The notes below the pieces were generated by a model. That model was not told the origin of the DNA. It did no database searches and saw nothing but the letters and a program-made list of their open reading frames with translations. The translations under genes were made by a program, and so were the position numbers. Positions 681-18,136 of a DNA stretch of 25,487 nucleotides are shown piece by piece. Origin of the DNA: Thermoplasmata archaeon (GTDB lineage: Archaea; Thermoplasmatota; Thermoplasmata; RBG-16-68-12; JAJISG01); contig JBHHWA010000001.1 in the NCBI GenBank assembly GCA_046756285.1, positions 1 to 25,487 of the forward strand. Direction: 5' to 3'. The stretch's first letter is position 1, and every line of letters begins with the position of its first letter.

Positions 681-704
681 GCGTGTTCGAGAAGGTGGTT
701 GAAG

Positions 705-710
705 TATAAA
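705..710 (-). promoter_or_regulatory. TATA box (TTTATA) of endA, probably a leaderless transcript
   Basis: AT-rich hexamer 25-30 nt upstream of ATG680 in a GC-rich context; endA, the HTH gene, DP1, S26 and valS all show similar spacing. Confidence 0.6.
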
Positions 711-788
711 CGGTGCCCGAGGGCCTCGACTGAGGTCTGCGAACCGGTTGGATCGCCGGCTCCCACTCCCGAACGTGGGAATGGCTGG

Positions 789-819
789 CGATAATCTCAG
801 ACCAACGTTTAATAGCGCT
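789..819 (+). promoter_or_regulatory. Promoter of pilin/FG-GAP paralog 1 with conserved upstream box CGATAATC and TATA-like TTTAATA
   Basis: CGATAATC-TCAGACC-AACG-T-TTAA-TAGC-GCT aligns without gaps to the promoters of paralogs 2 and 3. Confidence 0.65.
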
Positions 820-830
820 AAAATGCCCAA

Positions 831-3800
831 ATGGCCAGGCTCTCAGATGGGGGGCGTCGCACGCTGCAGAGACGAAAGCTGGGCCATTCCGGGGTCGCGG
901 AGGTCCTCGGGACCATCCTGGTCCTGCTGATCACCGTCATCATCTTCTCGAGCATCGTGCTCTGGGTCTTCACCCTTCCCGCGCCCAGGGCGGGGGTCAA
1001 CGTCTCCTTCAGTGGGTTCCTATCCGGCAGCTACGTGGGCGGGATTTGGAACGGGGCTGATGTTCAGCTCAACCACTTGGGAGGCCAAGACCTTCACGAG
1101 GGGAGCACGGGAGTATACCTAACGATTGACAACACGACGGAGGTCCTGAAGACGCAGGGCACCTTCTTCGACGGAGTCAGTGTCAAGGAATACGGAGTGA
1201 AGGGGCCCGATGCCACGTGGAACGTCGGAGAGACGTGGACATACCTGAACGAGAGCATCCCCCAGGATGCGAATGTCTCCGTTATGGTCGTGGACCTCGA
1301 ACGGGGCCTACTCCTCTGGCGGAAACCGCTCCTCGGAGCCCCGGGCACGCTGGCCCCCATCTTCCTCGACAAGTGGGTGGACTCTGCCCCGGCGACGGCC
1401 ACGAGGGACCCCGTAACGCCTGACGACAGGTTCACAATCTTCGCCAAAGTGACCGATCCCGACGCAGATCTCAGCCCCGAATCCGTCTGGGGCTACCTGA
1501 CCTTCGGAATCGGCGGCACGCCCCTCGGGTACGTCCAGTTGCGAGATGACGGGAACCCCTTGGTTGGAGACCTCATCGCCGGCGATGGGGTCTACACCCG
1601 TACGCTGAGTTACCAGGCCCAGAAAAAGTGGGACGGGGGCATCATCATCCTCAACGCGACCGACGACGGAGGACGAGGGACCCAGACTAGGCTCATCCTG
1701 AAGGTTCTGGACACGGGAACCTCCACGCAGGTCGGCGGTCCCGGCTCGCTCGGTTTTGGCTCTGCTACCCAGCGATACGAGATCTTCGAGGAGAGCGATT
1801 GGGATTCGCTCCGCTGGGAGGCCACGGCGACCCGGAGCTTCACGAAAGGCCAAGGCGTGGTGGTGGTCGTAGCCACGAAGAAGATCGTCAGCCCAGACTT
1901 GCGCAACACTTTCCTGCTGTGGGATCCCTCTAACAATCGGGAGGTCGTGTATAGCGACCCCCCCTACACGAACCCCGTTACAGGAAGTTCCGTTCCCTCC
2001 ACGACGGACGCCTTTGTGCTGGCGGAATTCGTCAGCGGTTTCTACGTCTACGAGTACCGTTTCACCACTACAAGCGCGGCCCACGGGTTCGACGGATTCC
2101 AGTTGCAATTCGGACACTATCCCCTCGAGTTCGAGTTGATCACAAGCCAGACCCCTGCTCCGGAAAACAGGCTCTACGTGACCGATGCCATCCAGGTGAC
2201 CGATGCCGCCGGCGGAAGCCCCGACTACCCGAGGGTGGAGACCTATGAGGACGCGGCCCACACGATCTCCGCGACGGCCTTCAACTTCACCGAGACGATG
2301 TACGTGAAGGTGTTCGTAGGGAGCACCGATGGAAGCTTTGACGTCGGAAACGTCGTCATATCCGACTTCTTTGGGAACCTTCCCATCTGGGCATCCCCGG
2401 GGACCACCCCAGTGAGCGTCGCCCTCATCAATGACACCATCAGCTACGCCTTCTCCGTGGATCTCTCCAAACCCAACCTGGATCCCTGGAACTTTGGGAC
2501 GGTCTCCTACAACCTGGCTGTTATGAATGTCCAGGACGCAGACGAGAACTATGGCCGGGTCTGGGGACAGATTCAGGTCACCGGTCCGCGCTGGAAATTG
2601 GACATCGCAATGGGCCTCTTTTCGACCGCACAACAGAACTTTGACCTGGCAATCTACGGGGACTTCTTCGACAACGTGGAAGGCTGGACCGAGTATCCCT
2701 ACGAGACCTTCCTCGCATCCCCGGGGAGGAAGGCGCCAGACAACCCTATCACATCGCAGGTATTGGGCGACCTCGACGGGGACGGTGACCTCGACATTCT
2801 CTCAGGGACGAAGAACGGCGAGGTCTGGTGGTATCGGAACCGAGATGGGAAGGCCCACTCTCTGAGTCGCACTGTCATCGACACACTCACATCGACTGTA
2901 AGCGGGGCCGCCGTCGGGCACGTCGACGCGGACACTGATCTGGATGCGGCGGTGGGGACCACCACGGGAGACGTATGGTGGTACCGGAACGACGGGTCCT
3001 GGTCTCCCAACTTCGTGGACAACACGGGGGCCGGGGTCTCCGCCCTGCAGCTAGCCGATGTCAATGGAGACGGCGCCGCGGACCTGATTGTCGGCCTCGA
3101 CGCGGGACCGAACAGCGTGCGGGTTTACCTCAACAACGGAGGGGGCGTGTTCGGGACGGTGACGACCACGGAGACCCTCATGAACGCCGACGTGTTGACC
3201 CCGGGCCACGGAACCGTGGGCGGGTCCTTCCTGCTCACAACCGCCAGCGACAACTTGTACCAGCAGGTGGAAGAGGTGGGCTCGGACGGCTTCGTAGCCG
3301 CATTCGAGGCGGCCGGACTGGCCTCGACGGTCCAAGGGACCTTCCTCGACACCTACGCGGCCGATGGCGTCGTTGAAGTCCTCACCGAGGGGGAGGCCCT
3401 TCCGCGGTACACCCTGGGCTTCCCCGGCCATCGCTACCTGTTCCCCAACATGACCGCGACCGCCTCTGAATCCTTCGAGATCCACTTCGTCGGCCACGTC
3501 AGCTCTGGCTCCGAGCCCTTCGCGGTCGGTTGGTCAAAGGACGGGCTTACCGTCGACTGGCTGAGCGGGTTGATTACCGGGCTGACACCGGGGGAGTACA
3601 TCTGGCGTCTCTCCGGAGTGGACTGGAGTGACGAAACCCTCTTTCTTCACATCATGGACGTCGACGATAGCCCGACCGATCGCAACACCGACGAGCAGCT
3701 CACGAGTCTCTCCGTCGACCTACTCTACATCTTGCAACCCGAGAGCGGCAGCATCAGCAGCCTCGCGAAGGTGTGGAGGTCGTCCACCATCCCGGGGGGG

Positions 3801-4619
3801 AAGGACGCCTACAAGTTCTTCGCGGAGGCGCATCACACCTTCAACGCCGAGAACGACCACCTCCTGCTCCAGGTCGCGGCCGCCCCCCACGGTCCCTACT
3901 ACGGCCTCCTCGTCGTCACGAAGACCACCGATGACGATGGCACCCAGAGCGTGTCCCTTCCCACCGACATCGGCGGCCTCTCCCTCTACATCCTCGCCCA
4001 GGATACGGATCGGAGGTTCGGTGCGACCGTGCTCGACACGTTCTGGTTCGACCACCTGTACTTCAAGTCCTACGAGGCAATCCCCGCCTACTGGCCCATC
4101 GGCGTGGGCGCCCCCACCCAGGGTCTCACCGTGGCGGACATCGACGGGGATGGACACCAGGACATCGTCGTCGCCACGCCGGGTACGGCCCTCCACGTCT
4201 ACTACGGCGACGGGACGGGGAAGGCCTGGCCCTCCAGTGACACGCTAACCGCTACTGGAGCCCTGCTCACGGTGGACGTCGGACTCGTGTCCGCCGACTT
4301 GGCACTCGATATCGTCGTCGGAACCGGTGATACCAAGATACTGCTCTTCACGAACGGCGGTTCCCGAGGGTCTTGGTTCCTCTCCACGATCTCCTCCCTG
4401 TCGACCACCACTACCTCGACGCTCCGCGTGGGGGATGTCGACGGGGACAATTGGGATGACGTCATCTTTGGGACGGAGAACGGCTTCCTGGTGTACCTTC
4501 GAAACGATCAGGGCACCGGCTGGAGGACGACCATCGTCATCCAGATGAACGACCGGATTGACGTGATCGACATCGGGGATGCCGACAGGGGCGTCCTGAT
4601 TCGACCCCATCCTTACTGA
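831..4619 (+). CDS. Giant type IV pilin-like surface protein, paralog 1: class III signal peptide/archaeal pilin N-terminus, stalk, FG-GAP beta-propeller with inserted nested domains (1262 aa)
   Basis: HSG|VAEVLGTILVLLITVIIFSSIVLWV pilin-type N-terminus (DUF1628-like); LRDDGNPLVGDLIAGDGVY motif; six FG-GAP repeats (e.g. LGDLDGDGDLDIL, LADVNGDGAADLIVG, VADIDGDGHQDIVVA, VGDVDGDNWDDVIFG) plus a C-terminal half repeat IGDADRG; many N-x-S/T sequons. Start uncertain (ATG831 or ACG861). Confidence 0.88.
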   Translation: MARLSDGGRRTLQRRKLGHSGVAEVLGTILVLLITVIIFSSIVLWVFTLPAPRAGVNVSFSGFLSGSYVGGIWNGADVQLNHLGGQDLHEGSTGVYLTIDNTTEVLKTQGTFFDGVSVKEYGVKGPDATWNVGETWTYLNESIPQDANVSVMVVDLERGLLLWRKPLLGAPGTLAPIFLDKWVDSAPATATRDPVTPDDRFTIFAKVTDPDADLSPESVWGYLTFGIGGTPLGYVQLRDDGNPLVGDLIAGDGVYTRTLSYQAQKKWDGGIIILNATDDGGRGTQTRLILKVLDTGTSTQVGGPGSLGFGSATQRYEIFEESDWDSLRWEATATRSFTKGQGVVVVVATKKIVSPDLRNTFLLWDPSNNREVVYSDPPYTNPVTGSSVPSTTDAFVLAEFVSGFYVYEYRFTTTSAAHGFDGFQLQFGHYPLEFELITSQTPAPENRLYVTDAIQVTDAAGGSPDYPRVETYEDAAHTISATAFNFTETMYVKVFVGSTDGSFDVGNVVISDFFGNLPIWASPGTTPVSVALINDTISYAFSVDLSKPNLDPWNFGTVSYNLAVMNVQDADENYGRVWGQIQVTGPRWKLDIAMGLFSTAQQNFDLAIYGDFFDNVEGWTEYPYETFLASPGRKAPDNPITSQVLGDLDGDGDLDILSGTKNGEVWWYRNRDGKAHSLSRTVIDTLTSTVSGAAVGHVDADTDLDAAVGTTTGDVWWYRNDGSWSPNFVDNTGAGVSALQLADVNGDGAADLIVGLDAGPNSVRVYLNNGGGVFGTVTTTETLMNADVLTPGHGTVGGSFLLTTASDNLYQQVEEVGSDGFVAAFEAAGLASTVQGTFLDTYAADGVVEVLTEGEALPRYTLGFPGHRYLFPNMTATASESFEIHFVGHVSSGSEPFAVGWSKDGLTVDWLSGLITGLTPGEYIWRLSGVDWSDETLFLHIMDVDDSPTDRNTDEQLTSLSVDLLYILQPESGSISSLAKVWRSSTIPGGKDAYKFFAEAHHTFNAENDHLLLQVAAAPHGPYYGLLVVTKTTDDDGTQSVSLPTDIGGLSLYILAQDTDRRFGATVLDTFWFDHLYFKSYEAIPAYWPIGVGAPTQGLTVADIDGDGHQDIVVATPGTALHVYYGDGTGKAWPSSDTLTATGALLTVDVGLVSADLALDIVVGTGDTKILLFTNGGSRGSWFLSTISSLSTTTTSTLRVGDVDGDNWDDVIFGTENGFLVYLRNDQGTGWRTTIVIQMNDRIDVIDIGDADRGVLIRPHPY

Positions 4620-4629
4620 GGCCATTGCA

Positions 4630-4650
4630 CCCTCCTCAGGGAGGGGTTTC
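4630..4650 (+). terminator. Possible terminator hairpin after paralog 1
   Basis: CCCTCC-TCAG-GGAGGG (6-bp stem) followed by GTTTC, 11 nt after the stop; weak evidence in GC-rich DNA. Confidence 0.25.
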
Positions 4651-4689
4651 TGCCGAGCCTCGGCGGGTGGCTGATACGGCCCTGGTTCC

Positions 4690-4719: not shown

Positions 4720-5658
4720 GTGGACCGGGCCCAGCTTCTGATGGAGGCGCGCGATCTTCTCGCGCACACCGGCTTCTTCGTCAGCGAGCAACATTGGAGC
4801 CGGGGCCTGAGCTTCGACCTCGCCGCCCGTCGCGACGATGTGCTCCTGTTGGTCAAGGTCCTCCTCAATGTGGACGCCCTGAGCCGGGAGGCGGCCCGGG
4901 AGCTGAAGGCCATCGCCTACAGCCTCGACGCCGCCACCCTTCTCGTGGGCCTGAAGAGCAGCAGCGGGGCCCTCGAACAGGGCGTTGTCTACTCGCGCTT
5001 CGGCATCCCGATCGCCACCCCCAAGACGCTCCAGGAGTTCCTGGAGGAGGGCGTCCCTCCCTTCATCTTCTCGGCTCCTGGCGGTCTCTACGTTCGCCTC
5101 AACTCCGACGTCCTGCGTCGGGTCCGGGAGGAGGTGGGCATCTCCCTGGGGCAGATGGCCGAGGTGGCCCATGTCTCCCGACGCACGATTCAGATGTACC
5201 TGGACGGCATGAGCGCCACGGTCGAAGCGGCGTCCCGCCTGGAGGAGTTCCTCAACGAGCCCCTCGTGCTTCCCCTGGACCCCTTCGGCTCGCCGGACGA
5301 GGCGGCCGGCCGATCCCGCCGTCCCTCGCCCGCAAAGGACTTTCACGGGATGATCCGAGGTCTTCTCACCAAGTTGGGGTACGACGTCTTCCTCACCCAG
5401 CGATCCCCCTTCGACGCCATCACGAAGGACGAGGCGATTCTCTTCCTCGCTGGGATGGATAGGCAGGAGCGTGCCCTTCGTCGGAAGGCGGAGGTCGTGG
5501 CCAACCTGTCCAAGGTGGTGGAGAAGGAACCCATCATCTTCGTGTCCCGGCGGGAGAAGATCAGCCTGCGCGGGGTTCCCATCATCGACGCCTTAGAGCT
5601 CCGCAAATTGCGGGAGCGGGGGGAGATGGTGGAGCTCGTCGAGGAACGAAAGGAGTAG
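4720..5658 (+). CDS. Conserved archaeal Cro/C1-type HTH transcriptional regulator (COG1395/PRK04140-like)
   Basis: SFDLAARRDDVLLLVKVLLNVD N-terminus, GVVYSRFGIP, GGLYVRL, HTH region LRRVREEVGISLGQMAEVAHVSRRTIQMY, then RSPFDAI. This pattern is typical of the family. Confidence 0.88.
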   Translation: MDRAQLLMEARDLLAHTGFFVSEQHWSRGLSFDLAARRDDVLLLVKVLLNVDALSREAARELKAIAYSLDAATLLVGLKSSSGALEQGVVYSRFGIPIATPKTLQEFLEEGVPPFIFSAPGGLYVRLNSDVLRRVREEVGISLGQMAEVAHVSRRTIQMYLDGMSATVEAASRLEEFLNEPLVLPLDPFGSPDEAAGRSRRPSPAKDFHGMIRGLLTKLGYDVFLTQRSPFDAITKDEAILFLAGMDRQERALRRKAEVVANLSKVVEKEPIIFVSRREKISLRGVPIIDALELRKLRERGEMVELVEERKE

Positions 5659-5661
5659 ACC

Positions 5662-6732
5662 TCAGCGGGGGCCCGAGGCGACCTTCGACCTGCGCTTCGC
5701 GGCGGAGGCCTTGGGCCGTCTCCCCTTCTTCCCTCCCTTGGGCGGTTGTCTCTTCCTCGGACTCACCACCTTCTTCTTGGGACTGACCGCCTTCTTCTTC
5801 GGCGTCGCGGTCCTCTTCTTGGGAATCGCTGCCTTCTTGAACACGAAGTAGAGCCGAGACGGTTGCTCCCCGCGACCACGAAGGGCCAAGGCACGAATGT
5901 GACAGTACACCTTCGTCCCGCTGGCCTTCGTGAAGAAGGCCTTCAACCCCTCCGACATCTCTCCGTTCACGAGGGGCTTCTTGCCCACGAAGTCCATCTC
6001 CGCGAGCAGACGACCACGGTCATCCTTGGCCTTCAGGACCCGGGCCCAGGGCTTCCCATGGAGCTGGTCCTCCTTCCACCCGAGGAACTTCGCGCTCGGT
6101 GGAGACAGCCCGCGGACCCGCATTTCGCCGTCCACCTTGATGGCCGCGTCGGCAAGGCTCTCCGCCAGGTCCTCCAACTTTCGAAAGGCGCGATGGGACT
6201 CATCCTGGAGCCGTGCGTTCTCCACGGCCGTGGCCATCTGGTTGCCGATGCCACTGACCACGTTGATTTCCTTGCTGGTGAAGTAGTGGCGGGACGTGGT
6301 GCTATCCAGGGTCATCAGCCCGACGGCCTTCCCCTTGTACACCAGGGGGACGATCAGCATGGACTTGAGTTGCCAGGCTCGGATAATCTTCTGGGGAAGG
6401 AGGTCCTCCTGGGGCAGGTCCCGGACGACGGAGGGGAGCTTCTGGGTGATCACCTTGTTCACGAGTTTGGGGACCTCGGCGTGGCTGAGCTGGCGGTCCA
6501 TGAGGACCTGGGCAAAGGCGTCCCGCGGGCAGTAGGCCACCGCCGGGATCAGGAGCTGATTCCGGGGATCGTCGAGGAAAACCGCGGCCCGGTCCACCTT
6601 CACGAGCTGCGGGGAGATGCGCACGACCGTCCGAAGCACCTCCGAGAGATCGGAGAGGTTGCTCACCATCTCCGAGACGCCGATGAGGGCCGCCAGAATT
6701 TGGGTCTCACCCAGATTCCTCTCGTCGAACAT
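5662..6732 (-). CDS. GAF + PAS-like sensor protein with a Lys/Arg-rich (S/T)PKK-repeat C-terminal tail and no kinase domain
   Basis: GAF: DLSEVLRTVV...VDRAAVFL...KSMLIVPLVYKGKAVGLMTLDS...QMATAVENARL. PAS-like: LAESLADAAIKVDGEMRV...FLGWKEDQLHGKP. The last 58 aa contain 25 K/R and no D/E. Confidence 0.85.
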   Translation of the reverse strand: MFDERNLGETQILAALIGVSEMVSNLSDLSEVLRTVVRISPQLVKVDRAAVFLDDPRNQLLIPAVAYCPRDAFAQVLMDRQLSHAEVPKLVNKVITQKLPSVVRDLPQEDLLPQKIIRAWQLKSMLIVPLVYKGKAVGLMTLDSTTSRHYFTSKEINVVSGIGNQMATAVENARLQDESHRAFRKLEDLAESLADAAIKVDGEMRVRGLSPPSAKFLGWKEDQLHGKPWARVLKAKDDRGRLLAEMDFVGKKPLVNGEMSEGLKAFFTKASGTKVYCHIRALALRGRGEQPSRLYFVFKKAAIPKKRTATPKKKAVSPKKKVVSPRKRQPPKGGKKGRRPKASAAKRRSKVASGPR

Positions 6733-11170: not shown

Positions 11171-14100
11171 TTAGGCGGAGGGATCGATAACTATGCCGCG
11201 ATCCACGTCCCCGACGTCGATGCTATAGATCCGAGTTCCGAGTTGCTCGATCACGATGATCTTCCAGACGACCCCTTTATCATGGCGATACCAGCGGATG
11301 TACCCATCCTCCGTGGCGATAACGATGTCGTCCCAGTAGTCCCCATCGATGTCGGCCACGCGGAGGCTGCGCACGTCGTCTTGGTTCGTGTGAATGAGCG
11401 TGCGGGTCCAGGTGCCGTCGTTGGCCCACCAGTAGACCCGGTTGTCTTGGGTCCCTGCCGCGATGTCGTAGGTGGAGTCGGCGTCTAAGAAGCCGACGTC
11501 GACGGCGTTGACCCTGCCCGTGGCCGCCAAGCTGACGGAACCCCAGGCAGGGGCGTATAAGACACGGGCCGTGCTGCCCGCCGCGACCACGATGTCGTTG
11601 TCTCCATCGCCGTCCATGTCAGCCACGGCGAGGTCCTCCACCTGGGGACCGACGTGGATCACCTCTTCGTCAGGGAGCGTAATGAAGCGCCGCACGAAGA
11701 TGTGGTCCACGTAGACGGCGTCCAGGTCCGTGGCGTTCGGATCCCGGTTCGTGTCCCGCACCCGCAGGTAGAGAGGCGCGCCTCCAATGATTGTCGGGAG
11801 ATTCGCCGTCTGGTACTCGTTGTCATCCACGGTCTTCGTCACGGTGATGAGCGTAGACCACGGCCCGGCCGGGGCGAGAGAGCCCTCGACGACGAAATCG
11901 TCGAATTCGCTGTTGAGGGTGTGGTGGGCCTCCACGAAGAGCTTGTATGCGTCCCCACCCGCGCCCACGGGGAAGGACCGCCACTGATGCTCCAAACGGC
12001 TCGTCGTGCCCTGCAGGCCGATAACCACGACTACGACCTGGTCGAGAGAGATCCGGGAGGCCATGCTGTCTGTGGCCGAATCCAGGTTGGACATGTCTGT
12101 GTCTTGGAACACGATGTAAAGGTCACCACCGCCAAATCCGGCGGCGCTCAGGTCATAGATCTTCAGTGTCTCCGTGGTTTCCGTTAGGGTGCCCAAGACC
12201 GAAACACCGCCGGCCCCGACCTTGTAACCAATCTCGAAGGCTTCCGATCCATCCCCCTCGCTAATGAAGCCGCTGACGACGAGGAACGCCCGATCGGTCG
12301 GGCCGAGGGGCGCGACATTCCCCATGACGTACTGGTGCCCTGGTTCGGCGCCCCCCGTGCTGTTCCGCATGAGGTAAAGGTCGTCCTCGAACCACCAAAA
12401 CGCGTCGTAGAACTCCTCCTGCAGCTCCTCGTACACGCCGTCATCCGCGTACGTGTCCAGGTAGCTCCCAGAGAAGACGACGTCGAACTCGGAGAGGATC
12501 TCGTTAACGGGGACGTAAAAGTCCCACACCTCGCCCGGGCCGAGGACCTCCTCGATGGCCTCGTACGTGTTGTCCGACACACGCGTGTCCGCGACGGTCC
12601 CGGTGATGTTCCCAAACACCGGCATGTCCGTTTCGAGCGTGTAGTCGGCCGTCAGTTGTGTGCCAAAGACGCCAAACCCGTTGTTACGGTAGATGATGAC
12701 GTCCCCGCCGTCCGTCCCCGCGACGATGTCGTTGAATCCGTCGCCTCCCGCAGGGTAGACGTCGGCGAGCTTGACCACGTTGATGCCCGGTCCCAGGTTG
12801 GCGACGAGGCTCGGGGTCCAGTCGCCGTCGTTGGAGTAGGTCCAAATCTCCCCGGCGCTGGTCCCGATCACGATGTCGTTGTCGGAGTCCCGATCGATGA
12901 GCCCGATCGCTACCGCCTCCACGCTGTCCGCCAGGTTGTCGATTTCGAAGCGGGTCCATTGGCTCCCATCGCCCAAGGTGTTCCGATACCAGAGGACACG
13001 CCCGACCTCGAGTCCGAAGACCGCATCCAGGTCGCTGTCCTCATCCAAGTCTCCGAGGGCCACATCCAGGAAGTCTCCGCCCCCGAAGGGCGGGCTGCCC
13101 CCGCAGAACCAGAGGAAGCAGTCTCTCCGGAAGGACTCCATGACGGTCCGACTCCAGGCCCCGTCATTCTCGTAGAACGTGGCGTACCAGGTCTCGTCGT
13201 TGCCGAAGAGGAAGAACGTGACTTCGTTCAGGGCCGCGATGGCGTCCAGATCCCAGCGGGCCCCACGGACGATGACCTGGGCAGTGAGCGCGTACTCCTC
13301 GTTGAAGTCGGCGATGCGCTTGATGCGGAAGCCGTAGGCGTTGGTCCCGAAGAGCCAGGGATCCAGGTTCGTGGTCGAGAGGTCGACGTTGAAACGGTAG
13401 GAACGGGTGTCGTTGACCGCGCCCGGGCTCACGGGGTCGTTGCCGGGCGTGGCCCAGACCTGGACACCACTCTCATAGTCCGAGATGACCACGTCGCCAA
13501 AGATGAAGCCGGCGTCCGTGTCCCGGACCGTGACTCGGACGTACATTCTGTCTGTCGTGTTGAATGTGTTCGTTGGCTGCGTGTGGGCCGCGTCCGCGAA
13601 GAACTCGACCTTCGGATAGTCGGGCGCGCTGCCATTCTGTTCCGTCACCAGGATGGAATCAACGGTGGCGAACCGGTTGTTGGGGGGAGGTACGTTGTTG
13701 GCCCGGATCTCCATCGACACGGAGTGCGGCCCAACGACCAGCTGGACGCCATCCCATCCGTACGCACTGGAGTTCGTGCTGAAGCGGTGCTCGTAAACGT
13801 AGAAGCCTCCCACGAAGCCGAGGAAGGTGAAGGCTCGCGTGCTGGAGGGAAGGGAGGTCTGTGTCACGGGATCGTTGTATGGGGCGAAGCTGTAGACCTC
13901 CGGCCTCTGGGGGAGCCCCGAGGGGGAATAGAGGAACACGTCGTTTTGGAGATCGGCGTTCTTCAGCTTCTGGCTGGCCACGACGATGACGACGGTCTCT
14001 CCCTTCCGGAAGGTTCGGGTTCCGTTGGCGTTGTAGCCGTTGGTGTCCCACTCCGTCGCGTTGAAGATGTCATACAGCTGGAGGTCGCTCTCGAGGGCCA

Positions 14101-14986
14101 GGCCCTCGGGGCCCTTGAAGGGGAGTCCCCCGCCCAAGTTCAGGACCTCGAAGATGAGGCGCGTCTGCGCTTCGCGGCCGCCCTGGTCCGTGGCGTTGAG
14201 AATGATGATGCCCCCATCCCAGGTCTGCAGCGCGGCGAAGCTCAGGGCCCGACTGAAGACCCCATCTCCCGCGAGGGCGTCTCCGACGTTCGGGTCCCCG
14301 TTGTCCAGGAGCTGGACGTAGCCAAGGGGGGCGCCGAACCCGAAGGTGATGTAGCCCCAGACGGAGGCCGCGTCCAGGTCCCCATCCGGGTCCCCGACGC
14401 GGGCGTAGATCGCAAAGGTATCGTCCACGCCCACGGGGTCGCGGCTCGGGGTCGAGGGCTCCGAGTCAACCCACTTCTCCAGGAAGACGGGCAGGCGCTC
14501 CCCGCCCTCGCCCAGGAGGATCTGGTCCCAAATGACCGTCCCACGGACGACGTCCACGACCAAAACCGACACCTGGGCGGTACGGTTGATGGTCTCGTTC
14601 TCGTAAAACCACGTCTCCCCGATATTCCAGTGGATGTCGGGGCCATCAACGCCGTAGGGCTTCACGCTCACCCCGTCGAAGTGATTGCCCTGCGTCTTGA
14701 GCGTATGAGTGGTCCCGTCGATGGTGAGGTAGACCCGCGTGTTCGTATCGAGCAGGTCGTCGCCCCCGAGGTGGGTCAGGTTGACGTAGGCGCCGGCCCA
14801 GGATCCGGCCACGTACCGCCCCTCGAGGCCGCCATCGATGCCGGCATTCCCCGCGGCCCGGGGCGCGGGGAGGGTGAAGACCCAGAGAACGATGGTGGAG
14901 AAGATGACGACCGTGATCAGGAGGATGAGAATGGTTCCAATGACCTCTGAGACTCCACGATGGTCCAGAGGTCTCCGCGGCAGCAC
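11171..14986 (-). CDS. Giant type IV pilin-like surface protein, paralog 2: class III signal peptide, stalk, FG-GAP propeller with nested insert (1271 aa)
   Basis: GTG start with GGAGGAG SD; HRG|VSEVIGTILILLITVVIFS; LLDNGDPNVGDALAGDGVF; FG-GAP repeats LGDLDEDSDLD, IGLIDRDSDND, LADVYPAGGDGFND, VADMDGDGDND, VGFLDADSTYD, VADIDGDYWDD, and half repeat VGDVDRG. Confidence 0.9.
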   Translation of the reverse strand: MLPRRPLDHRGVSEVIGTILILLITVVIFSTIVLWVFTLPAPRAAGNAGIDGGLEGRYVAGSWAGAYVNLTHLGGDDLLDTNTRVYLTIDGTTHTLKTQGNHFDGVSVKPYGVDGPDIHWNIGETWFYENETINRTAQVSVLVVDVVRGTVIWDQILLGEGGERLPVFLEKWVDSEPSTPSRDPVGVDDTFAIYARVGDPDGDLDAASVWGYITFGFGAPLGYVQLLDNGDPNVGDALAGDGVFSRALSFAALQTWDGGIIILNATDQGGREAQTRLIFEVLNLGGGLPFKGPEGLALESDLQLYDIFNATEWDTNGYNANGTRTFRKGETVVIVVASQKLKNADLQNDVFLYSPSGLPQRPEVYSFAPYNDPVTQTSLPSSTRAFTFLGFVGGFYVYEHRFSTNSSAYGWDGVQLVVGPHSVSMEIRANNVPPPNNRFATVDSILVTEQNGSAPDYPKVEFFADAAHTQPTNTFNTTDRMYVRVTVRDTDAGFIFGDVVISDYESGVQVWATPGNDPVSPGAVNDTRSYRFNVDLSTTNLDPWLFGTNAYGFRIKRIADFNEEYALTAQVIVRGARWDLDAIAALNEVTFFLFGNDETWYATFYENDGAWSRTVMESFRRDCFLWFCGGSPPFGGGDFLDVALGDLDEDSDLDAVFGLEVGRVLWYRNTLGDGSQWTRFEIDNLADSVEAVAIGLIDRDSDNDIVIGTSAGEIWTYSNDGDWTPSLVANLGPGINVVKLADVYPAGGDGFNDIVAGTDGGDVIIYRNNGFGVFGTQLTADYTLETDMPVFGNITGTVADTRVSDNTYEAIEEVLGPGEVWDFYVPVNEILSEFDVVFSGSYLDTYADDGVYEELQEEFYDAFWWFEDDLYLMRNSTGGAEPGHQYVMGNVAPLGPTDRAFLVVSGFISEGDGSEAFEIGYKVGAGGVSVLGTLTETTETLKIYDLSAAGFGGGDLYIVFQDTDMSNLDSATDSMASRISLDQVVVVVIGLQGTTSRLEHQWRSFPVGAGGDAYKLFVEAHHTLNSEFDDFVVEGSLAPAGPWSTLITVTKTVDDNEYQTANLPTIIGGAPLYLRVRDTNRDPNATDLDAVYVDHIFVRRFITLPDEEVIHVGPQVEDLAVADMDGDGDNDIVVAAGSTARVLYAPAWGSVSLAATGRVNAVDVGFLDADSTYDIAAGTQDNRVYWWANDGTWTRTLIHTNQDDVRSLRVADIDGDYWDDIVIATEDGYIRWYRHDKGVVWKIIVIEQLGTRIYSIDVGDVDRGIVIDPSA

Positions 14987-15069
14987 TCGAGCTCCTCCCA
15001 GGAAGGAGGCTTGTTTGCGCTGGCCAGCTTATTTAATCGTTCCCGCGGGATTATCGATGAAGATAGCCA
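14793..15069. repeat. 277-bp perfect direct repeat, copy 1 (promoter, SD and first 194 nt of paralog 2)
   Basis: Base-by-base comparison: identical to 17860-18136 (offset 3067). Confidence 0.93.
15026..15056 (-). promoter_or_regulatory. Promoter of paralog 2 (CGATAATC box and TTAAATAA TATA)
   Basis: Minus strand reads CGATAATC-CCGCGGG-AACG-A-TTAA-ATAA-GCT; SD GGAGGAG at 14993-14999. Confidence 0.7.
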
Positions 15070-15239: not shown

Positions 15240-18053
15240 TTAGGGCGGCTCGGACCGCCGAATGGCGATCCCTCGGTCCACGTCGCCGATATCCAGCGAG
15301 TTGATGTTCTTGCCGAGATCAGCGATCCACTGGGTGGACCAGGAGATCCCCTTATCGTGGCGATACCAGAGGATATCTCCCGTCTCGGTGCCGACAAGGA
15401 CGTCGTCCCAGAAGTCCCCGTCGATGTCCCCGACCCGTAGGGTATAGACCTTGTCCGCCGAAGGGACTTGGTTGATCGCCGTGCGGTCCCAGGAGCCGTC
15501 GTTGGCAAACCAATGGACGAAGCCCAGTTCATTGCCCGTGACCACGTCCAGAGTCTCGTCGCCGTCGATATGGCCCACGTCCACGGCGAGGACGAGGGAC
15601 CCCGCCGATAGTCTCGCAGAGGAACCCCAACCGGGGCCGTAGGCGACGATGGCATCGGAGCCTCTGGCCAGCACGATGTCATTGTGCCCGTCGCCGTCCA
15701 CGTCGGCCACCGTCAGGTCCTTGATTTCCGCTCCCACCCCGAAGGCCTGGGAGGTCGGGAAGTCACCGAGGCCGTCGTTCTCGTAGATTCGGAGGAAACC
15801 ACTCTTCATCCCCGCCACGATGTCGTTGAACCCGTCGCCCGTGACGTCCGCCAGCTTGATCTCCACGACCTCACTGCCGAGATCCGCCACGAGGGTGCGG
15901 CTCCAGACCCCCGTGTTATAGTAGGCATAGATCTGGCCGAGGACATTGCCCGTCACCACGTCGTTGTCCGTATCCCGGTCGATGCGGCCCGCGTCGACGG
16001 TCCATAAGGCCACGCCCTGGTCGTCAATCTGTATGCGCTGCCAGAAGTTACCCGCTCCGTCCAAGTTTCTGTACCAGAAGAGGGGGGCCACTTCGGCGGC
16101 AGTGACGGCGTCCAGGTCCCCATCCTCGTCCATATCGGCCAAGGTGATGTCGTGGAACGGCCCGCGGCCCCAGGGCGGGTCCGGATCCATGGGCGTGGAC
16201 TGATGGTACTCGATGAGATAGACCGCCCATGGGGGGATGTTCTCGAAGAAGAGGGCATACCACTTCTGGTCGAAGATGGGGTGGCCGAACTCCTCGTTGG
16301 CGGTGACGACGTCCAGCTTCCAACGCGGACCCTGGACCGTCACCTGAGCCGCGAGGGCGTACACCTCGTTGCCATCTCGAATCTCCTTGATACGGAACCC
16401 GTAGGAGTTGATTCCCGGCAACCATGCATCCGCGTTGTTGTTCGAGAGGTCTACAGAGAACGTGTAGTTCCGGATGTCCAGGATGGACAGTGGGCCGATG
16501 GGATCGACACCTGGGGTCGCCCAGATCTGAACGCCGCCGAAGTAGTCGGAGACGAACACGTCTCCGGCGCTCACGGACAGGTCTGTCTCCCGAACGGTGA
16601 CCTTCACGTACATCACGTCCGTGTAGTTGAAGCTCGTCGCTTGTTGGGTGTAGCCCGCGTCCTTGTAGAACGTGAGTCGGGGATAGTCGGGAGAGCCACC
16701 CGCGTCGTCCGTGACGGTGATGGTGTCTGTGGTCGCAAACCGGTTCAGAGGAGGGCCCGCGATGGAGGACTTCAGCTCGATGGTCAGGGGGTACTGCCCG
16801 TAGGCCAGCTGGACCCCGTCGAACCCGGCGTCCGCCGATGTGGTGCTGAACCGGTGCTCGTACACGTAGTAGTCGCCCACGAACTCCACGAAAGAGAACG
16901 CCTTCGTGCTGGAGGGGGTGGTCGTCTCCCCCACGGGCTCGTTATACGGCGGGTCACTATACACGAGGGGGGTGAGCGGGACCACCGAGGGATCGTGCAT
17001 GAAGAAGTCGTTCTTGAAATCCAAGTCCCGTAGGGTCTGGCTCGCCACGACAACCACCACCGTTTGTCCCTTGACGAAGGTTCGCGTGCTCGTGGCATTC
17101 CAGCGGTTGGCATTCCAGTCCGACTCCTCATAAATGTCGAAGCGCTGGACACTCGAGGCGAAGGTCAGGGCCACGGGCCCCGCGGGGTCTGGGATGCTCC
17201 CGGTGTCCACGACCCGGAGAGTGAGGCGCGTCTGCGCTTCGCGGCCGCCCTGGTCCGTGGCGTTAAGGATGATGATCCCCCCATCCCAGCTCAGCATGGC
17301 GGCGAAACTCAGTGAACGACTGAAGACTCCATCTCCGGCCAGGGCGTCTCCGATGTTGGGATCCCCGTTGTCCAGCAGCTGCACGTAGCCAAGCGGCCCG
17401 CCGAATCCGAAGGTCAGGTACCCCCAAACGGAGGCCGGATTGAGGTCCCCATCGGGGTCCCCGACCCGGGCGTAGATCGCGAAGGTGTCGTCCACGGCCA
17501 CGGGATCGCGGCTCAGCGTCGAAGGCTCTGAATCGAACCACTTCTCCAGGAAGACGGGCAGGTGCTCCCCGCCCTCGCCCAAGAGGATTTGGTCCCAGAC
17601 GACCGTTCCGCGGACCACGTCCGCGACCAAAACGCCGACCTCCGCGGTGATGGGGATCGTCTCGTTCTCGTAGGTCCACGTCTCCCCGATATTCCAGTGG
17701 ACGTCGGGACCATCGACGCCGTACGGCTTTACGCTCACGCCGTCAAAGTGACTTCCTTGGGTCTTGAGCGTGTGCGTAGTCCCGTCGATGGTGAGGTAGA
17801 CACGAGTGTTTGGATCCAGCAGATCATCCCCGCCAAGGTGCGTGAGGTTGACGTAGGCCCCGGCCCAGGATCCGGCCACGTACCGCCCCTCGAGGCCGCC
17901 ATCGATGCCGGCATTCCCCGCGGCCCGGGGCGCGGGGAGGGTGAAGACCCAGAGAACGATGGTGGAGAAGATGACGACCGTGATCAGGAGGATGAGAATG
18001 GTTCCAATGACCTCTGAGACTCCACGATGGTCCAGAGGTCTCCGCGGCAGCAC
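15240..18053 (-). CDS. Giant type IV pilin-like surface protein, paralog 3: same architecture but an uninterrupted FG-GAP propeller (937 aa)
   Basis: N-terminus identical to paralog 2; six consecutive FG-GAP repeats plus half repeat IGDVDRG; lacks the ~310-330 aa insert. Confidence 0.9.
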   Translation of the reverse strand: MLPRRPLDHRGVSEVIGTILILLITVVIFSTIVLWVFTLPAPRAAGNAGIDGGLEGRYVAGSWAGAYVNLTHLGGDDLLDPNTRVYLTIDGTTHTLKTQGSHFDGVSVKPYGVDGPDVHWNIGETWTYENETIPITAEVGVLVADVVRGTVVWDQILLGEGGEHLPVFLEKWFDSEPSTLSRDPVAVDDTFAIYARVGDPDGDLNPASVWGYLTFGFGGPLGYVQLLDNGDPNIGDALAGDGVFSRSLSFAAMLSWDGGIIILNATDQGGREAQTRLTLRVVDTGSIPDPAGPVALTFASSVQRFDIYEESDWNANRWNATSTRTFVKGQTVVVVVASQTLRDLDFKNDFFMHDPSVVPLTPLVYSDPPYNEPVGETTTPSSTKAFSFVEFVGDYYVYEHRFSTTSADAGFDGVQLAYGQYPLTIELKSSIAGPPLNRFATTDTITVTDDAGGSPDYPRLTFYKDAGYTQQATSFNYTDVMYVKVTVRETDLSVSAGDVFVSDYFGGVQIWATPGVDPIGPLSILDIRNYTFSVDLSNNNADAWLPGINSYGFRIKEIRDGNEVYALAAQVTVQGPRWKLDVVTANEEFGHPIFDQKWYALFFENIPPWAVYLIEYHQSTPMDPDPPWGRGPFHDITLADMDEDGDLDAVTAAEVAPLFWYRNLDGAGNFWQRIQIDDQGVALWTVDAGRIDRDTDNDVVTGNVLGQIYAYYNTGVWSRTLVADLGSEVVEIKLADVTGDGFNDIVAGMKSGFLRIYENDGLGDFPTSQAFGVGAEIKDLTVADVDGDGHNDIVLARGSDAIVAYGPGWGSSARLSAGSLVLAVDVGHIDGDETLDVVTGNELGFVHWFANDGSWDRTAINQVPSADKVYTLRVGDIDGDFWDDVLVGTETGDILWYRHDKGISWSTQWIADLGKNINSLDIGDVDRGIAIRRSEPP

Positions 18054-18136
18054 TCGAGCTCCTCCCAGGAAGGAGGCTTGTTTGCGCTGGCCAGCTTATT
18101 TAATCGTTCCCGCGGGATTATCGATGAAGATAGCCA
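17860..18136. repeat. 277-bp perfect direct repeat, copy 2 (promoter, SD and first 194 nt of paralog 3)
   Basis: Identical to 14793-15069. Confidence 0.93.
18093..18123 (-). promoter_or_regulatory. Promoter of paralog 3 (identical to that of paralog 2)
   Basis: Lies within the 277-bp repeat. Confidence 0.7.

Follow-up and report, generated by a model that had tools for sequence, protein, structure and literature searches.

Three pilin-propeller genes and their promoters

The window, by which we mean the whole 25,487-nucleotide stretch of DNA analysed here, is the entire contig C1 of a metagenome-assembled Thermoplasmata genome (G000; 1.415 Mb, 64% G+C, 74% complete, 346 contigs). It carries three paralogous genes for pilin/FG-GAP proteins, each preceded by a short box that includes BRE-like and TATA-like words (Table 1). 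Around these genes a common gene order is kept across the order, comprising the tRNA-intron endonuclease, the PRK04140 regulator, the pilin, the GAF-PAS protein, a CAAX protease, the PolD small subunit, a phosphoesterase, a signal-peptidase-like gene and Cdc6/Orc1, and the pilin locus may lie near a replication origin. The HTH and GAF-PAS genes stay close to the pilin gene in most families of the order, with the GAF-PAS gene often upstream of it in relatives of the genome studied here.

Table 1. Positions of the pilin-propeller genes, their promoter elements and the two neighbouring candidate regulators in the window.
Feature	Position	Strand	Description
Paralog 1 box	789-819	+	31-nt box
Paralog 1 right half-site	790-795	+	GATAAT, core of CGATAATC at 789-796
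Paralog 1 BRE-like and TATA elements	804-815	+	AACG 804-807; TATA box TTTAATAG 808-815
Paralog 1 gene	831-4619	+	1262 aa; archaeal type IV pilin N-terminus and FG-GAP propeller
HTH_3 protein	4720-5658	+	NCBIfam PRK04140 equivalog; candidate regulator of the preliminary description
GAF-PAS protein	5662-6732	-	second candidate regulator of the preliminary description
Paralog 2 gene	11171-14986	-	1271 aa; ancestral syntenic position
Paralog 2 box	15026-15056	-	31-nt box
Paralog 2 BRE-like and TATA elements	15030-15043	-	GGAACG 15043-15038; TATA octamer ATTAAATA 15037-15030
Paralog 2 predicted operator	15050-15067	-	GCTATC 15067-15062, spacer ttcatc, GATAAT 15055-15050
Paralog 3 gene	15240-18053	-	937 aa; tandem copy
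Paralog 3 box	18093-18123	-	31-nt box
Paralog 3 BRE-like and TATA elements	18097-18110	-	GGAACG and TATA octamer ATTAAATA
Paralog 3 predicted operator	18117-18134	-	identical to the paralog 2 operator, offset 3067

Paralog 1 is a recent, polymorphic insertion, an extra copy flanked by the genes for the tRNA-intron endonuclease and the HTH protein. Contigs from the X4 run join position 682 or 685 straight to 4689, with window positions 683-4688 missing, and this junction points to a co-occurring strain without the whole paralog-1 cassette of promoter, gene and tail. In two relatives (G005 and G003) the endonuclease and HTH genes are adjacent, as they are in the X4 junction.

At all three box positions the sequence reads as the preliminary description gave it. 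Within the boxes, AACG and TTAA are, by their sequence, the BRE and TATA elements, and GATAAT is a predicted additional element upstream of both. The words AACG or GGAACG and TTTAATAG or ATTAAATA agree with the TATA and BRE words of this genome as judged from hexamer counts and alignment. GATAAT is itself unlikely to be a TATA box; other families hold GGTAACTACC in that position. The octamer had been taken as the functional unit, yet the predicted unit is larger: at paralogs 2 and 3, GATAAT apparently has an inverted partner across a 6-nt spacer on its upstream side (GCTATC-N6-GATAAT). At paralog 1 no left half-site was recognisable 12 nt upstream of GATAAT, and an orthologue of this gene (L072) retains CGATAATC-N7-AACGTTTAATA.

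Paralog 1 is identical to paralogs 2 and 3 at 20 of the 31 box positions, a recount that replaces the earlier figure of 19. Paralogs 2 and 3 are themselves identical over 277 nt (15069-14793 and its copy), a patch that spans promoter, leader and signal peptide, and they therefore count as one copy, leaving two independent copies in total, as the preliminary description had cautioned. When the paralog-2 upstream region was shuffled 300 times, 14 of the shuffles gave a match of 20/31 in some 31-nt window, and 78 an exact shared 8-mer. Because two of the three boxes belong to one copied patch and shuffled sequence reaches 20/31 this often, the window by itself supports the box only weakly.

In the 1.4-Mb genome, the composite CGATAATC-N7-AACG-N-TTAA occurs exactly three times, each time before a pilin/FG-GAP gene. 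The bare octamer CGATAATC has 31 copies, mostly intragenic, against about 17 estimated from base composition, and TGATAATCA with one mismatch was counted 88 times against a permutation median of 33 and maximum of 122; these two counts are not decisive, since A/T-rich words accumulate outside genes. The paralog-1 promoter is also covered by contigs of two other runs of the same study, with no differences listed. At positions 18057, 18071 and 18079 of the paralog-3 leader, contigs of other runs show different letters, none of the listed variants falling inside the box; given these variants, assembly may account in part for the paralog 2/3 promoter patch being perfectly identical.

Conservation and lineage-specific change of the box

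Of 41 related genomes, 37 encode a homologue of the pilin, and a scan of public genomes added 80 loci. Promoters were positioned first by the conserved GVSEV codons and next by the TATA octamer, giving a gap-free alignment of 84 distinct sequences. In 77 of these 84, G(G/A)TAA starts exactly 18 nt before the TATA octamer, and at paralog 1 and its orthologue L072 it lies one nt closer than in the 77. Among 37 representatives sharing less than 75% identity, the box columns hold 1.3-1.7 bits, compared with 1.1-2.0 for the TATA columns, and columns further upstream mostly hold 0.4 bits or less. The pilin proteins themselves are just ~35-45% identical between families, and at that divergence an information content equal to that of the TATA box indicates equally strong constraint. 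Judged by these promoter alignments, then, box and TATA are constrained to the same degree throughout an order of uncultured Thermoplasmata, so that conservation in orthologous promoters, the check that the preliminary description had named, bears out a functional element. The half-sites of (C)TATC-N6-G(G/A)TAAT are also retained, with a variable spacer sequence, in relatives of the same family, as at the loci L006, L007, L029, L008, L009 and L011.

The sequence of the box differs between lineages. Families f2 to f7 carry a 10-bp dyad, GGTAA(C/G/T)TACC, with (A/G)C directly after it; the sister genus carries GGTAATTGC; and the genus of the window carries (C/T)GATAAT(C/T) in both paralog lineages. 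In five relatives GGTAAnTACC is rare genome-wide, with no excess over its reversed control, which leaves only the copies in promoter context as informative. In these five genomes, such copies precede the pilin gene and one or two genes for surface-anchored proteins, and in the f5 genomes searched GGTAAC-N12-TATA matches pilin promoters only. This near-restriction to pilin promoters suggests that the ancestral box looks nearly private to the pilin gene family, and the word "dedicated", which the preliminary description applied to the regulator, may describe that ancestral state. Through the change from GGTAAT to GATAAT, the lineage of the window seems to have moved or relaxed its adhesin promoters into a shared regulon; a single factor, or two separate ones, may recognise GGTAAY and GAKAAY.

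Boxes also occur in arrays. On another contig of the same genome (C205, 145-210, plus strand), boxes recur with a period of ~19 nt as TGATTCTCA-N10-TGATTCCTA-N10-TGATAACCA ahead of a TATA box, and f5 pilin promoters have an extra TGATTCTCA and CTATCA upstream of GGTAACTACC. Arrayed and added boxes of this kind suggest several bound units.

A putative genome-wide operator and its predicted regulon

In genome-wide counts that rely on crude gene calls and a crude TATA pattern, the most enriched hexamers before 690 TATA-like sites, in an unbiased count, were GATAAT (72x), TGATAA (66x) and GATAAC (49x), followed as the next class by BRE-like words of the GGAAAA type just before those sites. Counted against the same pattern, GA(T/G)AA(C/T) pairs with TATA-like hexamers 25 times at +18 to +20 and 0-4 times at other upstream offsets. 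The positional bias that would be predicted for a regulatory site is thus present across the genome as a sharp peak.

We aligned 22 distinct promoters on the right-half box, the left half-site playing no part in their selection. In 10 of the 22, including paralogs 2 and 3, GTTATC or ATTCTC is matched at 5/6 positions or better at offset -12, and none of the 22 has an inverted partner at the other offsets tested. A partner at this one fixed distance suggests that the full site is an inverted repeat, roughly GTTATC-N6-GATAAC, and the putative genome-wide operator can be written as approximately GTTATC-N6-GA(T/G)AA(C/T), with the right half 12 nt before the TATA hexamer at no fewer than 22 promoters. 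Paralog 1 and the majority of GTPase promoters lack the left half-site, so a dimer bound to a palindrome is not a general description.

The promoters with a box include those of the three large pilins and of a small classical pilin on contig C3. Five Ras-family GTPase genes qualify under the strict pattern and the remaining two have variants, so that every one of the seven Ras-family genes found in the genome has the box or something close to it. The set also takes in three ArsR-like wHTH paralogues, two of which, like a fourth ArsR gene, have related boxes. By Pfam assignment, it further includes a KaiC-like ATPase, a DUF835 membrane protein and an archaeosortase-like protein, along with several membrane or secreted proteins without a family. 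Orthologues of one of the GTPases retain GAGAA(C/T)-N12-TATA in most families, and partly in f5. Ras-family small GTPases are strongly expanded in the order, with seven here and, for this GTPase, 2-19 matches per genome in 40 relatives, where they often form tandem pairs.

The preliminary description had read the box as private to the adhesin family; this does not hold for the present genome, in which GA(T/G)AA(C/T) in the same register heads at least 22 promoters. A search of the literature on the motif returned nothing relevant. The kind of element, an upstream site for an archaeal transcription factor, is known already, and the predicted regulon and the lineage-specific change of the box are described here.

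To our knowledge, almost nothing is known of gene regulation in uncultured Thermoplasmata or of the role of archaeal Ras-like GTPases. The predicted regulon ties small GTPases to pilin adhesins and envelope proteins and hints at a surface or adhesion programme. Moreover, a precisely placed putative operator makes in vitro tests possible without cultivation by supplying a DNA probe and a handful of candidate factors, and the orthologous promoters offer a natural example of apparent operator turnover at a fixed position.

Candidate factors, proposed mechanism and alternatives

A very conserved Phr/ArsR-like wHTH family probably contains the binder, an assignment that is correlative only. This wHTH family is the best candidate because its promoters contain a box of the TGATAATCA or TGAGAATCA type, often two, in the loci of every family sampled; the boxes lie near the register of the pilin promoters, and a few g2 genomes have degenerate versions. 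What links the family to the operator is the presence of boxes in its promoters, a trait common to many members of the regulon. The protein (124 aa), encoded at 1585-1959 of contig C46 and with paralogues on C46 and C127, shows 75-100% identity throughout the order and has a beta-rich C-terminal part. Its predicted model (pLDDT 86) has the Pyrococcus heat-shock regulator Phr (PDB 2p4w) as its closest solved structure and also resembles other ArsR-type DNA binders. Phr is likewise its sole weak sequence match, at 23-26% identity over the wHTH domain; its score against the Phr NCBIfam model is 17 bits, compared with a cut-off of 320, and Pfam yields only a sub-threshold TrmB match. Phr of Pyrococcus furiosus differs from the candidate in length (198 aa) and is a repressor that acts at start sites. 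Homologue hits are confined to Thermoplasmata and are named "wHTH", "ArsR" or "ribosomal protein S25", the last being one source's label for entries of this family and probably a misannotation.

We consider that the box represents one half (the TATA-proximal one) of an upstream operator at which a wHTH-type factor acts on TBP/TFB, and that the operator is shared by a regulon, and we assign this reading, which draws on promoter sequence and position, a probability of about 0.6. Sharp positional bias and conservation in orthologous promoters are what such a site just upstream of BRE/TATA would predict. The GATAAT hexamer starts 18-19 nt before the TATA hexamer, which would place it at about -48 to -43 from the start site. 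The operator would end ~5-6 nt before the BRE, and a bound factor would sit just beyond the BRE; as a dimer, it would occupy one face of the DNA beside TFB and TBP. Archaeal factors that bind at such a distance usually activate, a position that favours an activator or modulator of the wHTH type. Reasoning from this position and from archaeal precedents, the factor most likely helps to recruit TFB/TBP and so activates or tunes transcription of the pilin adhesins, together with a predicted regulon of at least 22 promoters that would extend to Ras-like GTPases, ArsR-like wHTH genes, the small pilin and membrane or secreted proteins. It counts against this reading that neither core element of the pilin promoters, TATA or BRE, is obviously weak. 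A broader proposal, which we regard as tentative, is that an order-wide element couples the expanded Ras-like GTPases with pilin adhesins and envelope proteins under an autoregulated family of Phr-like wHTH proteins, and that one lineage rewired its adhesins from a private palindrome, GGTAAnTACC, to the common operator.

Several archaeal systems offer precedents. Activators in archaea bind directly upstream of the BRE. EarA, a small wHTH protein believed to assist TFB, activates archaellin promoters of Methanococcus maripaludis and Thermococcales from sites whose distance to the BRE is fixed at 9 nt (PMC5512572, PMC10665913). Like the box described here, EarA sites are short, lie a fixed distance upstream of the BRE/TATA of a type IV pilin-like filament gene, can be repeated and show order-wide conservation. 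The motifs differ, however, with TACATA or A(C/G)(C/G)TACA(T/C) for EarA and GATAAT or GGTAAnTACC here; GGTAACTACC of other families has the CTAC core alone in common with the EarA box, whereas the boxes of the window are CGATAATC. The predicted targets also differ, EarA serving the archaellum operon and the present box giant pilin/FG-GAP adhesins, GTPases and envelope genes. Judged by the names of its homologues, none of which is EarA, and by its Thermoplasmata-only hits, the candidate wHTH was not recognised as an EarA homologue. In addition, earA adjoins a methyltransferase gene, while the candidate wHTH is followed on its contig by a short ORF, and no methyltransferase is evident there.

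As summarised in one paper (PMC5512572), Ptr2 of Methanocaldococcus jannaschii, TFB-RF1 of Pyrococcus furiosus and TK0271 of Thermococcus kodakarensis have TBP/TFB-recruiting sites that, as here, are palindromic or repeated and lie directly upstream of BRE/TATA. These regulators belong to different protein families and read different motifs, and the present box is known from sequence alone. The glycolytic motif of TrmBL1/Tgr in Thermococcales is TATCAC-N5-GTGATA, and its position relative to BRE/TATA decides the outcome. That motif is similarly an inverted repeat with TATC/GATA cores common to a regulon, but its half-sites and spacing differ from GTTATC-N6-GATAAC, and it governs sugar metabolism rather than surface and GTPase genes.

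An opposite sign of regulation, in which the box is a repressor site that blocks access of TFB/TBP and keeps adhesins and GTPases off until a signal arrives, is unlikely, although it is the best placed of the alternatives. The structural relatives of the candidate binder, the ArsR/Phr-type wHTH proteins, are classically repressors, and boxes in the regulators' own promoters would suit negative autoregulation. The site, however, ends ~5-6 nt before the BRE and overlaps neither BRE, TATA nor start site, a position typical of archaeal activators (PMC5512572). A second class of apparent boxes ~30 nt after TATA, which might have been repressor sites, consists mostly of mirror images that arise where palindromic operators lie beside palindromic TATA-like words.

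Less probable again is the proposal of the preliminary description, that the box is the operator of a dedicated adhesin regulator encoded next door, either the HTH protein or the GAF-PAS protein. Both genes lie near the pilin gene across most families, and in other families the box variant is almost pilin-specific. Against this, the same-register box heads promoters far beyond the adhesins (at least 22 in this genome), and the HTH protein is an equivalog of PRK04140, a pan-euryarchaeal family that passes its cut-off in three control genomes too. The conserved block takes in PolD, Cdc6 and the endonuclease, so that the linkage is not specific, and paralog 1 itself came to lie beside the HTH gene by recent insertion. 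The equivalog status and the conserved housekeeping gene order together argue against a dedicated role for the HTH protein, and a domain search recognised no DNA-binding domain in the GAF-PAS protein. The case for an operator read by a more widely acting factor corrects the view of the box as the mark of an adhesin-private regulator encoded next door.

We find it improbable, and a little more so, that the box is an extended core-promoter element for a paralogue of TFB or TBP, defining a class of promoters that depend on an alternative basal factor. The distance from the box to TATA is tightly kept at 12 +/- 1 nt, many promoters have a single half-site, the genome encodes three or more TFB paralogues, and the box tops the positional words before TATA-like sites, ahead even of the BRE. 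TFB contacts, however, extend only ~6-7 nt upstream of TATA, and the box, at 12-18 nt upstream, lies beyond them. Moreover, an inverted partner at a fixed -12 in 10 of 22 promoters suits a dimeric regulator, the pilin variant GGTAAnTACC is palindromic, and the box accompanies just ~4% of TATA-like sites. That the similarity is a functionless, neutral leftover of promoter duplication is highly improbable, for although the match in the window is marginally above chance and two of its three copies are one conversion patch, the order-wide conservation equals that of TATA amid flanking columns that are mostly essentially random, and the same-register box also precedes unrelated genes.

The leaders downstream of these promoters have features of their own. 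On the minus strand, CCTCC-N6-GGAGG at 14987-15004 and 18054-18071 could form a hairpin that pairs with the Shine-Dalgarno sequence of paralogs 2 and 3, and f5 relatives have CTCCC-N8-GGGAG in its place; a hairpin sequestering the Shine-Dalgarno sequence was rejected for the paralog 2/3 leader, which folds no better than shuffled sequences (z = 0.39). At paralog 1, ATG831 is just 23 nt downstream of the first base of the TATA box, too near for a transcript from that promoter to include it. ACG861, preceded by GGGGGG, aligns with the GTG start of paralogs 2 and 3, and in the orthologue L072 an ACG follows GGAGGG, with the upstream ATG kept too.
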